From an uncultured Verrucomicrobiae bacterium (GTDB lineage Bacteria > Chlamydiota > Chlamydiia > Chlamydiales > Rhabdochlamydiaceae): DNA of 64,000 bases. Every line of letters starts with the position of its first letter. Position 1 is the stretch's first letter. The position numbers and the translations under genes were made by a program. Below the pieces are notes generated by a model. It made no database searches. It was given only the letters and a program-made list of their open reading frames with translations, and was not told the origin of the DNA. Positions 19,101 to 50,623 of this stretch are shown here, piece after piece. The stretch covers positions 1 to 64,000 of the forward strand of contig CAWFUG010000009.1 in assembly GCA_963818965.1 (NCBI GenBank), written 5' to 3'.

Positions 19101-20981
19101 CCGGATCTACTGGCCTAACAGGTAGTACGACGGGGTCTACTGGGTCTATTGGGATGACGGGAATGACGGGGTCGACAGGCCCGACAGGACCGACAGGCCG
19201 CACGGGTAGCACGGGCTCGACGGGGTCTACAGGTGTGACAGGTTCTACTGGGATCACAGGGGCAACGGGTGCAACGGGTTTTACAGGCTCGACAGGCTCA
19301 ACCGGCAGCACTGGATCTACTGGTCCTACAGGATCTACTGGCCTAACTGGAAATACAGGCTCGACCGGATCGACAGGGCCAGTAGGAAATACAGGCCCGA
19401 CAGGGACCACCGGTTCTACAGGCACCACAGGTCCCACAGGCCCGACTGGCTCGACGGGAAATACAGGCCCTACCGGGCCAACCGGAAATACAGGACAGAC
19501 GGGAACGACAGGGACAACGGGTTTTACGGGAACGACAGGGAGTACAGGGATCACAGGTTTGACCGGCTCAACGGGTTCGACTGGGAGCACAGGTGGTACA
19601 GGTCCGACTGGTTCAACCGGTCCAACAGGTCTCACTGGCCCAACGGGCCCCACGGGCTCCACAGGTCCTACAGGGCTTACAGGTCCTACAGGACTAACGG
19701 GACCGACGGGTTTTACAGGCAGTACAGGGAACACCGGAACAACAGGTAGTACAGGAACGACCGGCCCAACAGGCCCCACAGGTCAAACAGGTACCACGGG
19801 GTTGACAGGATCGACCGGCTCTACAGGTCCGACTGGCCTGACAGGGGCAACGGGCCCAACGGGGCTCACAGGGCTCACAGGTGGGACTGGTCCTACAGGG
19901 TCGACCGGTCCTACGGGATCTACGGGCAGTACAGGATTTACAGGACCAACGGGACCAACGGGATCTACAGGTCTCACAGGAAGTACGGGTTCTACTGGCA
20001 TTACGGGTGTCACTGGGATAACGGGTGGGACAGGAATTACTGGCCCCACAGGGACGACAGGTACAACAGGTACGACCGGATCTACCGGCGGGGCAGGATC
20101 TACGGGCGGGACGGGTCCGACGGGGATTACGGGTCTGACGGGAAGCACTGGAACGACCGGATCGACAGGGACCACAGGCCAGACAGGCCCGACAGGATCG
20201 ACGGGTCCCACAGGATCAACAGGATCGACAGGAGCGACTGGAGCTACAGGTTTTACGGGAGCCACTGGAACGACCGGTAGCACTACGGGCTCAACGGGGC
20301 TGACGGGTCCCACAGGACTTACAGGTTCTACTGGTTTGACTGGACCAACAGGTCGGACAGGCGCGACAGGATCTACAGGATCTATAGGACCAACGGGCCC
20401 TACAGGCCTTACAGGCGGGGCAGGAACGACCGGCCCCACAGGCCCGACAGGTGGTCGGACGGGATCCACAGGACGAACGGGACCGACGGGGCCTACAGGT
20501 TCTACAGGAGGAACCACTGTTGCCGTAACGGATTGGGGTTATTTTTTTCAAGCAGGGACCCCCGGTTCATCGATGTCCATCAGTGTAAATGCATTTATCC
20601 CATTCACTGGTACAAATGCTGGGACTTTACTCGGTAGTGGAGGGGTTTCGTTTACAACACCTTCTACTGCGAGTATTGCGAAATGCAGGGACGTATTTGA
20701 TCAGTTTTGGTTACTCCTACGCCTCAGGAAGTTCCAACGTAGGGGGAGGCATTGGGCTCAATATCAATGGGACTGCACCGAGCAATAACAATCTAGTCCT
20801 ACCGTCCCAAGACACAGGTGCAGCAATGATTTCTTACACTATTGTGATGGTTTTGTCTGCAGGAACTACTATACAGTTACAAAATGTCAGCGCGGTTACG
20901 ATGGTCCTCGGCCCTGCATCAAACTCTACGAGTGCTACGGGAGGAATTACCGCCTATTTAATCGTGGTTAGAGTGCAATAA
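13197..20981 (+). CDS. Giant collagen-like protein, operon 1 chain A1 (N-type A, head X); multiple frameshifts in this assembly
   Basis: Signal peptide + [14 protein letters not shown] repeats continuous over 13338-20515 across shifting frames; head DWGYFF...[10 protein letters not shown]...YLIVVRVQ with a shift near 20680; ~2,590 codons. Confidence 0.8.
14770..19990 (+). repeat. 1032-nt (344 aa) super-repeat in chain A1, five periods
   Basis: Landmark TACGGGATCTAC.GGCAGTACAGGATTT near 14770, 15802, 16813, 17846, 18878 and 19910; one period is shortened by a garbled segment. Confidence 0.85.
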
Positions 20982-48424: not shown

Positions 48425-50623
48425 ATGGTCTTTTTAAAATGGAAAAAGCAGATTTTACGGGGACGCATTGGTTTTTTAAGTGGAGTTTACTTTTCATTGG
48501 TGCCGCTTGCAGTTTTAGCCGGGGAGTCAGAAGATTCGGTTGCAGTAGTGCAAGCACACTGTGGGAGATCCTCTAAAAAGGGTCCACCCGGTCCTGCGGG
48601 CCTTCCTGGTCCCCCAGGTCCGGCGGGCCCCCCAGGACCCATGGGTTCCTCAGGTTCTCTCGTTCAGGAAGGCTCTACGGGATCGACGGGAGGGGTGGGT
48701 TCGATAGGCTCAACTGGAATGGCCGGGTCGCCGGGTTCCATGGGACTGACAGGAATAACCGGATCGACAGGAGCAACCGGATCGACGGGACCGACAGGGG
48801 CGTCGGGTTTCATGGGATCTACGGGACCCACCGGCCCGACGGGACTGACAGGTCCGACGACTGGGATAACAGGTTCAACGGGAACAACAGGTCCGACCGG
48901 AACAGTGGGCCCAACTGGCCCAACCGGCCCGACAGGCTTAACCGGCCCGACAGGAACGACCGGAACAACGGGCACAACCGGCTCAACCGGCCCCACAGGA
49001 CGGACAGGATCTACAGGATCAATGGGTGATACGGGAATGACAGGCCTCACCGGGCCTACAGGTTCAACAGGGGGAACAGGTCCAACGGGAATGACGGGGG
49101 CTACAGGCCCAACGGGGCCTATGGGCTCAACTGGCCCGACAGGAACGACCGGAATAACGGGCCCAACGGGCTTAACTGGCCCCACAGGAACGACCGGCTC
49201 AACCGGCCTGACAGGAACGACCGGAACGACTGGAATGACCGGGGTAACAGGCCTTACAGGAATGACCGGCCCGACGGGCTTTACAGGAACGACTGGAACG
49301 ACTGGCCCGACAGGTCTGACAAGCTCTACAGGATTAACCGGCCCGACAGGGCCAACAGGCCCAACAGGAACGAATGGGGCAACAGGACTAACGGGAGTAA
49401 CGGGTCCCACAGGATCGACGGGCTTTACAGGCCCGACCGGTCCGACGGGCTTAACGGGAATGACAGGATCGCCGGGTTCTACGGGACCGACAGGGGCAAC
49501 CGGAATGACCGGGATGACCGGCCCGACTGGCCCCACAGCTTTAAGTAGCCCGACCGGTACAACGGGCCCGACAGGTTTAACGGGCTCGACGGGAACAACA
49601 GGACCTACCGGCTTAACAGGATCAACCGGACTCACAGGTCCAACAGGACTAACGGGCTTCACAGGACCGACGGGTTTGACGGGCCCGACAGGTCCAACGG
49701 GACTAACGGGATCGACCGGCCCAACCGGCTCGACCGGTTCCACAGGTGCGAGTGGAATGACAGGCGCCACAGGCCTCACAGGCCCAATAGGCTTGACGGG
49801 TCTGACAGGAACGACCGGGCTCACCGGTCTGACGGGAGTCACCGGGGCCACAGGCTTAACAGGCTCGACGGGCTCGACGGGCCCGACGGGGTCGACAGGA
49901 CCCACTGGCTCAACAGGCCCAACGGGCCCGACAGGACTCACTGGTTCGACTGGAATCACTGGAACGACCGGCTTTACGGGAGGGACAGGAGCAACCGGTC
50001 CGACGGGCTTCACAGGTTCAACTGGCCCAACTGGCCCAAGCGGACCTATCGGCCCAACCGGCTCAACTGCTCTGATAGGCCTAACAGGACGAACCGGCCC
50101 GACCGGTCCAACGGGGAGTACGGGAAGCACGGGTTCTGCCGGACCGACAGGACGGACAGGATCGACCGGTGCAACAGGGTCAACGGGGGCAACGAGTGTA
50201 GCTACAGCGGAAGATAGTGGGTATATTTATCTGCCATTGGCAGGAGGGTCTGTCGAGCATATATTAGCTAATACGAACATCGGTCCCTTTACGCTAGGCG
50301 AGGTTTCAGGAGGGGTTACCTTTACCCTTAGTACCACACTTCAAGTTGCAACCACTGGGGTCTATCTCGTTTCCTTTGGGTACGCCTTGGATACTGCATC
50401 AGGAGGTGGCCTTTTTGGGCTTCAGGTTAACGGACTGGCCGTTCCCATTGACCGGGCATTGGGAACGATACGGGATGGCACTCTGACGAGCGAAACGGTA
50501 TTGCTTTTCTTGTCAGCAGGCGACCAGGTCACTGTAAACAACGTGTCTGGGGGTTCTTTATCCGTCGGTCCTGGCTCGGCAAATAGTGGAACGGCTGCCT
50601 TTTTGACGATGATCCTGTTGTGA
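48425..50623 (+). CDS. Collagen-like protein, operon 2 chain B2 (N-type B, head Z)
   Basis: 732 aa; [12 protein letters not shown]; ~538 G-X-T residues; EDSGYIY...GEVSGGVTF...FLTMILL. Confidence 0.92.

Follow-up and report, generated by a model that had tools for sequence, protein, structure and literature searches.

Re-paired N-terminal modules and heads in three tandem collagen-like gene triplets of an uncultured chlamydia

A 64,000-nucleotide (nt) stretch of chromosomal DNA from an uncultured environmental chlamydia of the Rhabdochlamydiaceae (GenBank assembly GCA_963818965.1, contig CAWFUG010000009.1, positions 1 to 64,000; hereafter the window), which also holds the housekeeping genes pheT and recO, carries between 13194 and 57755 nine plus-strand collagen-like genes built on Gly-X-Thr (G-X-T) repeats and arranged as three tandem operons of three genes each (operon 1, 13194-36679; operon 2, 43902-50623; operon 3, 51157-57755). 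We read them as three-chain operons that were triplicated and re-paired at their ends and that most likely encode a heterotrimeric fibre containing one chain of each kind, a reading to which we give a probability of roughly 0.6. Genes are designated by operon and position (o1g1 is gene 1 of operon 1), with N-terminal modules labelled A, B and C and C-terminal heads labelled X, Y and Z.

All six open reading frames (ORFs) of operons 2 and 3 are intact and encode 711-755 amino acids (aa); the operon 1 chains, of ~2,570-2,600 aa, are broken by frame changes. Successive genes are separated in operon 1 by a 1-nt stop/start overlap and then ~195 nt, in operon 2 by ~85 nt and 1 nt, and in operon 3 by 16 and 4 nt. 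Promoter and terminator scans gave counts no higher than the shuffle expectation. The nine genes are as follows.

13194..20981, plus strand: o1g1, N-type A with head X; N-module 13194-13337, collagen 13338-20515 in about six units of ~1032 nt, head 20516-20981
20981..28781, plus strand: o1g2, N-type B with head Y; collagen 21143-28319 in six units of 1029 nt, head 28320-28781; start overlaps the o1g1 stop by 1 nt
28977..36679, plus strand: o1g3, N-type C with head Z; collagen 29080-36247 in about 6.6 units of 1029 nt, head 36248-36679; start uncertain because of the frame changes near 29010 and 29155
43902..46094, plus strand: o2g1, N-type A with head Y, a clear mosaic; collagen 44034-45653, head 45654-46094
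46156..48423, plus strand: o2g2, N-type C with head X; likely start 46180; collagen 46381-47979, head 47980-48423, with a Pfam BclA_C match
48407..50623, plus strand: o2g3, N-type B with head Z; likely ATG 48425, 1 nt past the o2g2 stop; collagen 48581-50188, head 50189-50623
51157..53367, plus strand: o3g1, N-type A with a divergent X-like head (NWAYVY); likely start 51178
53384..55615, plus strand: o3g2, N-type B with head Y
55620..57755, plus strand: o3g3, N-type C with a very divergent head, possibly Z-like

Module types, head classes and their incongruence

Separate trees of the nine N-terminal modules and the nine heads were incongruent, in agreement with a first-pass annotation of this DNA that had proposed junction cassettes exchanged between operons. 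The N-modules resolve into types A (o1g1, o2g1 and o3g1; 43-60% identity), B (o1g2, o2g3 and o3g2; 47-56%) and C (o1g3, o2g2 and o3g3; 51-58%), each recovered as a clade with support of 90-94, at cross-type identities of 31-43%. Gene order is consequently A, B, C in operons 1 and 3 and A, C, B in operon 2. The three N-terminal module types described in that annotation are borne out. Among the heads, class Y (o1g2, o2g1 and o3g2; 42-51% identity) is a firm clade (support 100/99). The X pair, o1g1 and o2g2 (39% identity), received support of 62/85 in the nine-head tree and 80/36 in a 48-head tree, in which the nine window heads were joined by 39 from a further 19 chlamydial genomes; the Z pair, o1g3 and o2g3 (37%), gained no resolution in the nine-head tree and 82/71 in the larger one. 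The nine window heads are monophyletic in the 48-head tree (93/93), and within their clade (o3g1,(o1g1,o2g2)) constitutes a wider X group at 88/64 (inner pair 80/36) and o3g3 floats. Forcing o1g3, o2g3 and o3g3 together gave a likelihood 0.34 log units (lnL) better than that of the free tree. Pairing o1g1 with o2g3, or o1g3 with o2g2, lowered the likelihood by 6.4 and 7.9 lnL, respectively, but neither pairing was rejected by the approximately unbiased (AU) test (p 0.30 and 0.26), and the end motifs back the pairing adopted here, X heads carrying DWGYFF...VVRVQ and Z heads ED(T/S)GY... ending in IIAL or MILL. The labels X, Y and Z are very probably correct for operons 1 and 2; as a classification of all nine heads, they hold outright for Y and in part for X and Z (80-88 and 82 in the 48-head tree, with the AU alternatives standing).

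Grouping the heads by N-type A was rejected by the AU test with nine heads (p 0.0007) and with 48 heads (p 0.0115), as was grouping them by N-type B with nine heads (p 0.0006). Because both of these groupings fail the test, operon 2, with A on Y, C on X and B on Z, is truly mosaic with respect to operons 1 and 3. Judged from the sequence, o2g1 certainly joins an A-type start to a Y head, whereas in operons 1 and 3 head Y sits on N-type B. For the full arrangements that had been claimed (A with X, B with Y and C with Z in operon 1; A with Y, C with X and B with Z in operon 2), the N-types and the placement of Y stand and the placement of X and Z has moderate support. Given these head classes, head Y is followed by N-type C in all three operons and head X by N-type B in operons 1 and 2, as had been observed.

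Each chain runs from its N- to its C-terminus through a hydrophobic signal-peptide-like start, a short peptide with a Cys at its end, 8-9 Pro-rich triplets with a break, a G-X-T collagen tract and a head; the signal-peptide-like N-termini and the Cys-basic motif were judged by reading the translations, without a predictor. The single Cys of each chain lies at the base of the helix beside a basic/acidic patch (CGKKPK, CGRSSKK or KCGxxPEQ). The collagen is Thr-rich and matched PF01391 in all six operon 2 and 3 proteins (E 1e-64 to 4e-75), with G-X-T tracts of 535-542 residues by interruption mapping. The heads are ~140-150 residues long, and all nine align as one family. Pfam BclA_C (PF18573) rose above its cut-off in one of the six proteins scanned, o2g2 (44.5 bits against 38), and a search of PDB sequences with the head profile returned just a chance-level cellulase match (E 0.037). 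For the o2g2 head, AlphaFold (AF2) modelling from the alignment of all nine heads gave an all-beta jelly roll (mean predicted local distance difference test score 78.6), for which the best PDB folds found by Foldseek were F-BclA 9h38 (E 1e-8; template-modelling (TM) score 0.76-0.80) and BclA 2r6q and 1wck (overall E 1e-8 to 3e-8, TM 0.69-0.81); TNF ligands, C1q and collagen X NC1 scored below these (E 1e-5 to 1e-4). By this model the heads are predicted to fold as BclA-C/TNF-C1q jelly rolls. Outside the window, at G000:C11:402399-402767 on the minus strand, a lone 138-aa ORF without in-frame collagen gave a weak match to the head profile (E 9.5e-5).

Joints within the collagen tracts and age of the rearrangement

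Interruptions of the G-X-T pattern follow the module types on either side of the tract. Type A chains of operons 2 and 3 have common +1 breaks at collagen residues 27, 52 and 77, type C chains have a common +4 break at 24 and another break at 121/127, and type B chains carry GPTALSS(P/S)TG at 319/321, placed 219 residues from the end in both despite their heads being Z and Y. On the head side, a pair of small breaks is common to the Y chains of operons 2 and 3, at 29/19 and 27/16 residues from the head. Furthermore, N-type and not head sets how far the aromatic head motif lies from the first Gly of the collagen: 546/546 residues in A chains, 544/544 in B chains and 541/540 in C chains. Because the interruptions track N-type or head type and the spans are fixed per N-type, the re-pairing is placed inside the collagen tracts and in register, which supports the proposal of the first-pass annotation that recombination occurred within the G-X-T tracts.

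In the history that we propose, an ancestral operon with N-modules A, B and C and heads X, Y and Z would later have been triplicated and, in one lineage, in-register homologous recombination among the tracts of neighbouring paralogues would have moved two internal units, each consisting of a head, the spacer and the next N-module. With the collagen tracts (c) serving as three direct repeats, operon 2 would correspond to A-c-(X-B)-c-(Y-C)-c-Z with the parenthesised units exchanged. One unit could have been excised as a circle and then reinserted into the next tract, or three direct-repeat deletions could have occurred in a tandem operon pair; both routes would need only homologous recombination between tracts and would presumably preserve length if in register. 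A unit swap of this kind could give only the cyclic permutation that takes X to C, Y to A and Z to B, and the same handed chain order would be kept at both ends of the trimer. Branching within types is unsupported and there is no outgroup operon, so that either operon 2 or the ancestor of operons 1 and 3 may be the derived one. A genome of the same genus (G355) yielded just one terminal head and one weak match.

The permutation of two intergenic cassettes put forward earlier survives as an order of modules, in that a unit swap is the most parsimonious account and keeps A first, Z last, X before B and Y before C, but not as conserved stretches of DNA. Similarity at the junctions is present upstream of the stop codon only: over the last 45 nt of the heads, X and X agree at 30/45 positions (z 10.6) and the Y heads of operons 1 and 2 at 34/42 (z 10.6), and X against Y also reaches z 5.5-8.9. 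Because X scores against Y too, this similarity reflects the conserved last beta-strand (AFLTxxRxx) rather than a cassette signature. No pair exceeded z 1.8 over the 60 nt past the stop codon, so that the junction similarity fails as a cassette mark, the spacers being unrelated; spacer lengths are ~195, 85 and 4 nt between Y and C, and -1 and +1 nt between X and B.

Modules of the same type are just 37-60% identical, and the longest exact words common to any two genes measure 16-27 nt (17-21 nt within operon 2). Given the low module identity, the short shared words and the unrelated spacers, the event is ancient and would find no present substrate for efficient homologous exchange. Programmed shuffling, whether by a shufflon, an invertible segment or a gene-conversion switch, found no backing: no recombinase was seen among the scanned ORFs, the genes are all co-oriented, and shared words stay at the lengths just given, all of which suggests that shuffling is not ongoing. 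As far as sequence can tell, the rearrangement is old and fixed, not a switch.

Matched chain lengths and the heterotrimer reading

Chains within an operon are matched in length to a striking degree. The collagen-to-head span is 546/541/544 residues in operon 2 and 546/544/540 in operon 3 (within 6), and 7193/7195/7183 nt in operon 1. Each operon 1 gene consists of about six tandem units of 1029-1032 nt (343 aa), located by autocorrelation and blastn at 14261-20499, 22114-28057 and 29287-36105; Tandem Repeats Finder (score 400) reported nothing, its longest period of 500 lying below the unit length. Units are 84-100% alike within o1g2, 88-100% among the five full copies of o1g1 and 82-100% among the central copies of o1g3, with flanking partial copies at 68-74%. 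Between genes, o1g1 and o1g3 units are 74% alike and the o1g2 unit stands at background (~63%) against both. That different repeats should arrive at equal lengths is difficult to account for without one helix shared by the three chains, or some other coupling of their lengths. Tight gene coupling (spacers of -1, +1, 4 and 16 nt), the lone helix-base Cys of every chain, the complement of one N-type and one head type of each sort per operon, and the matched triplets and further mosaicism seen in other chlamydiae (below) likewise count in favour of a heterotrimer. The full three-plus-three set that the first-pass annotation described as retained is so for the N-modules, with one of each type per operon; in operon 3 the heads of genes 1 and 3 fit X and Z only loosely. 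In such a fibre, trimerisation would be nucleated by the heads, all three of them, and the opposite end would be closed by the three N-modules with their Cys residues; the predicted fibre length is ~155 nm for operons 2 and 3 and ~690 nm for operon 1.

Of 401 genomes sampled from the phylum, 56 contain homologues of the heads, and 20 chlamydial loci were fetched for comparison. Tight, co-oriented groups of matched collagen length were seen elsewhere at 308/309/310 (G372), 199/199/199 (G306), 278/277/280 and 613/514/614 (both G240), 503/491/490 (G202), 240/222/225 (G178) and ?/1815/1817 (G175). G240 offers another instance of N-module/head mosaicism, in which genes with heads from different clades (100/100) have a long N-domain in common. 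The same genome, at C16 (L033/L034), has eight collagen-like genes on one strand with a ~110-aa helical N-domain on the first gene of each group and heads in two distant clades.

Several observations weigh against a triplicated, re-paired heterotrimer. Support for the X and Z heads is moderate, with the opposite pairings surviving the AU test (p 0.26-0.30); the heads of o3g1 and o3g3 sit on long branches and match X and Z loosely; and a grouping of heads by N-type C withstands the AU test (p 0.14, nine heads). The Y-side interruption markers are missing from o1g2, and sliding-window codon identity of the operon 2 genes against the three operon 3 genes is too flat (0.5-0.67) to place crossovers. 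Operon 1 is interrupted by ~17 frame changes, and one of its spacers holds a mobile element, so that it may be decaying. Among the other loci, pairs (427/425; 831/823), arrays of 5-8 genes and single genes also occur, and triplet heads from elsewhere group according to genome, for which reason some of the equal lengths may stem from recent duplication. Finally, PMC8968730 describes every bacterial collagen-like protein characterised so far, among them BclA, as homotrimeric. These last points feed the most serious competing explanation, that the locus encodes nine separate homotrimeric BclA-like fibres serving adhesin or antigen diversity, with triplets arising by tandem duplication and reshuffling unconstrained by chain composition; the grouping of triplet heads by genome and the existence of arrays of one, two and 5-8 genes count in its favour. 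It leaves unexplained, however, the convergence of operon 1 on 7183-7195 nt through different units, the match within 6 residues in operons 2 and 3, the presence of one of each N-type and head type per operon after rearrangement, and the near-zero intergenic spacing. We regard it as an unlikely but serious contender.

A history with just one head exchange, in which A and B traded their heads and the C gene came to lie between these two (operon 2 as A with Y, C with Z and B with X), would draw on the same AU results (p 0.30 for o1g1+o2g3 and 0.26 for o1g3+o2g2) and on the near-equal identity of the o1g1 head to o2g3 (38%) and o2g2 (39%); the conservation of X before B and Y before C would then partly reflect mislabelling of two poorly resolved heads. 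Maximum-likelihood trees nevertheless favour the X and Z pairing of the first-pass annotation by 6.4-7.9 lnL (80/36 and 82/71), the end motifs DWGYFF/VVRVQ and ED(T/S)GY/...I(A/L)L agree with it, and a single head exchange requires more rearrangement steps, all of which render it improbable. The order of operon 2 could in principle also be an assembly artefact from mis-joined collagen tracts: the locus is highly repetitive, the homopolymer-type indels of operon 1 are typical of consensus errors, and a gene outside the operons (the MptE-like gene below) is split too. The operon 2 genes, however, share exact words of 17-21 nt only, far under assembler k-mers or read lengths, all six operon 2 and 3 genes are intact ORFs, and public unitigs of 151 nt with 0 mismatches cover 47453-48134, crossing the border between the collagen and head X of o2g2. 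Because nothing there is repetitive enough to mis-join, a misassembled operon 2 is very improbable indeed. The re-paired heterotrimeric operons remain the reading that we prefer.

The frame changes of operon 1 (~17) fall at 13900-17950, ~20680, ~21185, 22130-22434, ~29010 and ~29155; o1g1 has ~12 from 13.9 to 17.9 kb plus another in its head near 20680, and o1g2 and o1g3 have two each near their 5′ ends. In an alignment of five o1g1 units nearly all indels were single bases in G or C runs, in addition to one ragged stretch. Long-read consensus errors are a more likely source of these changes than decay of the operon. An MptE-like gene (PF01973; 61438-62923) is also split by a frameshift, near 62010, with profile positions 1-67 on one ORF and 68-170 on the next.

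Three metagenome runs of one study (soil and freshwater sediment) contain 0.07-0.08 of the words searched, with no RNA run listed as containing them, and unitigs with 0-1 differences occur in the three runs at 47453-48134 and 44024-44196. The organism or a near-identical strain is therefore present in those samples at very low depth, and they may belong to the source campaign rather than provide independent support. Contigs from these runs leave the operon 2 junctions at 45648-46340 and 48189-48650 uncovered and are silent on alternative order and on expression. Apparent read joints with sides of 21-33 nt were rejected as evidence on order, as they derive from other collagen-like repeats.

Neighbouring genes and related systems

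The collagen-like genes are accompanied by the following features.

36879..38048, plus strand: GT92-family glycosyltransferase (PF01697, E 5.6e-31), 200 nt past the last operon 1 head
37996..43501: accessory block with a 549-aa protein (plus strand), a RidA/L-PSP gene at 39673-40086 (plus strand) and ~525-aa secreted proteins at 40141-41721 (minus strand) and 41927-43501 (minus strand)
28807..28973: palindromic dispersed element of 167 nt with nested perfect inverted-repeat arms of 36 and 35 nt, making up most of the operon 1 spacer between Y and C

In 12 of the 20 loci a GT92 homologue adjoins collagen-like genes, frequently as the next gene past the final head. By analogy with BclA biology, the candidate role of this enzyme is probably O-glycosylation of the Thr-rich collagen. 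The two ~525-aa proteins are 86% identical and belong with the 549-aa protein to one family (~530 aa, three copies here) that recurs in 11 of the 20 loci (L031-L049 neighbourhoods), with RidA in 3 of the 20. By weak Atlas leads, its members have W-containing repeats and an FN3-like C-terminus; no Pfam or NCBIfam model matches the family. The association of collagen genes, GT92 and the ~530-aa secreted family points to a conserved fibre locus. Counting both strands, the 167-nt element is matched 67 times across the genome, and a 55-nt partial match lies at 37003-37058 within the GT92 gene.

A library of 1.84 billion proteins returned 487 matches at E <= 1e-3, of which the four best, and the sole close ones, were gene fragments of this genome itself and the next reached E 3e-21. 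A search for homologous proteins at longer lengths gave none at E <= 1e-10. For the Y head, no relative was confirmed in species-genome contigs (73 pattern matches, 0 confirmed) or in JGI metagenome contigs (96, 0 confirmed), and full-text literature on collagen-like proteins and chlamydiae, judged from titles and abstract starts, held none on such genes.

The closest described system is that of the Pasteuria ramosa collagen-like protein (PCL) triplets, which are co-oriented, with one gene from each of groups 1-3, duplicated in the genome and thought to derive from one ancestral triplet (McElroy et al. 2011 via PMC13233619; PMC10329263). Their function is described as unknown (PMC10329263) and the triplet organisation is called seemingly unique to P. 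ramosa (PMC13233619); a specific linear order is stated for the triplets, and a 2025 preprint reports no mosaic PCL genes (10.1101/2025.03.22.644704). The likeness is one of organisation: three co-oriented adjacent genes, one per sequence group, in all three operons (spacers of -1 to ~195 nt). Unlike the fixed Pasteuria order, the order here is A, B, C in operons 1 and 3 and A, C, B in operon 2, with modules re-paired. The hosts differ as well (Chlamydiota versus Bacillota), as do the contexts, with no spore and with signal peptides here against an exosporium-targeting N-domain there.

With BclA and F-BclA (1wck, 2r6q, 9h38), the chains have in common a G-X-T stalk, a C-terminal TNF/C1q-like jelly-roll head and Thr-rich repeats near a glycosyltransferase. 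BclA is a single-gene homotrimer, unlike the three distinct chains per operon found here, whose sequence identity is just 17-20%, whose stalks reach ~2,400 residues and whose N-termini are Sec-type without an exosporium-targeting domain. Chlamydiae form no spores. The BclA N-terminal domain anchors to BxpB/ExsFA (PMC10470788).

C1q is a disulfide-linked heterotrimer of A, B and C chains. C1q (A, B, C) and collagen VIII/X resemble the present triplets in having clustered distinct genes, a short Cys N-peptide, a collagen stalk and a jelly-roll head, and they appear among the weaker fold matches (5hba, C1qA, E 5.7e-5; 1gr3, collagen X NC1, E 3.5e-5). They differ in that there is no detectable sequence relationship, the stalks here are 6-30x longer, the Y position of the repeat is Thr-rich rather than hydroxyproline-rich, and the heterotrimer here is inferred from genes. 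Low-complexity, collagen-like repeat tracts, which lie between functional domains, were also proposed, in PMC7242381 and PMC5601072, as hot spots of module exchange in phage tail-fibre and antireceptor genes. Unlike those swaps of host-range domains from phage to phage, the exchange seen here is between neighbouring chains of one operon and keeps the three-plus-three set and the exact length.

We would give even odds to the bolder proposal that these are the first natural heterotrimeric bacterial collagens, C1q-like ABC fibres in which composition is set independently at both ends by the heads and by the Cys N-modules. Under that proposal, operon 2 would be a natural domain swap in which any N-module can go on any head provided that the permutation is cyclic, the length co-evolution of operon 1 to ~2,400 residues would be enforced by a shared triple helix, and the triplets of Chlamydiales and Pasteuria would be convergent solutions.

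The locus adds to Pasteuria a second, unrelated lineage with matched-length triplets, together with a natural re-pairing of their ends, and its six intact genes of modest size in operons 2 and 3 make the heterotrimer idea directly testable. If true, it would provide natural chain-selection modules for designed heterotrimeric collagens and would explain why it is triplets, not single genes, that count for infectivity in Pasteuria. As to chlamydial biology, the finding points to unsuspected glycosylated surface fibres, ~155 nm and possibly ~690 nm in length.

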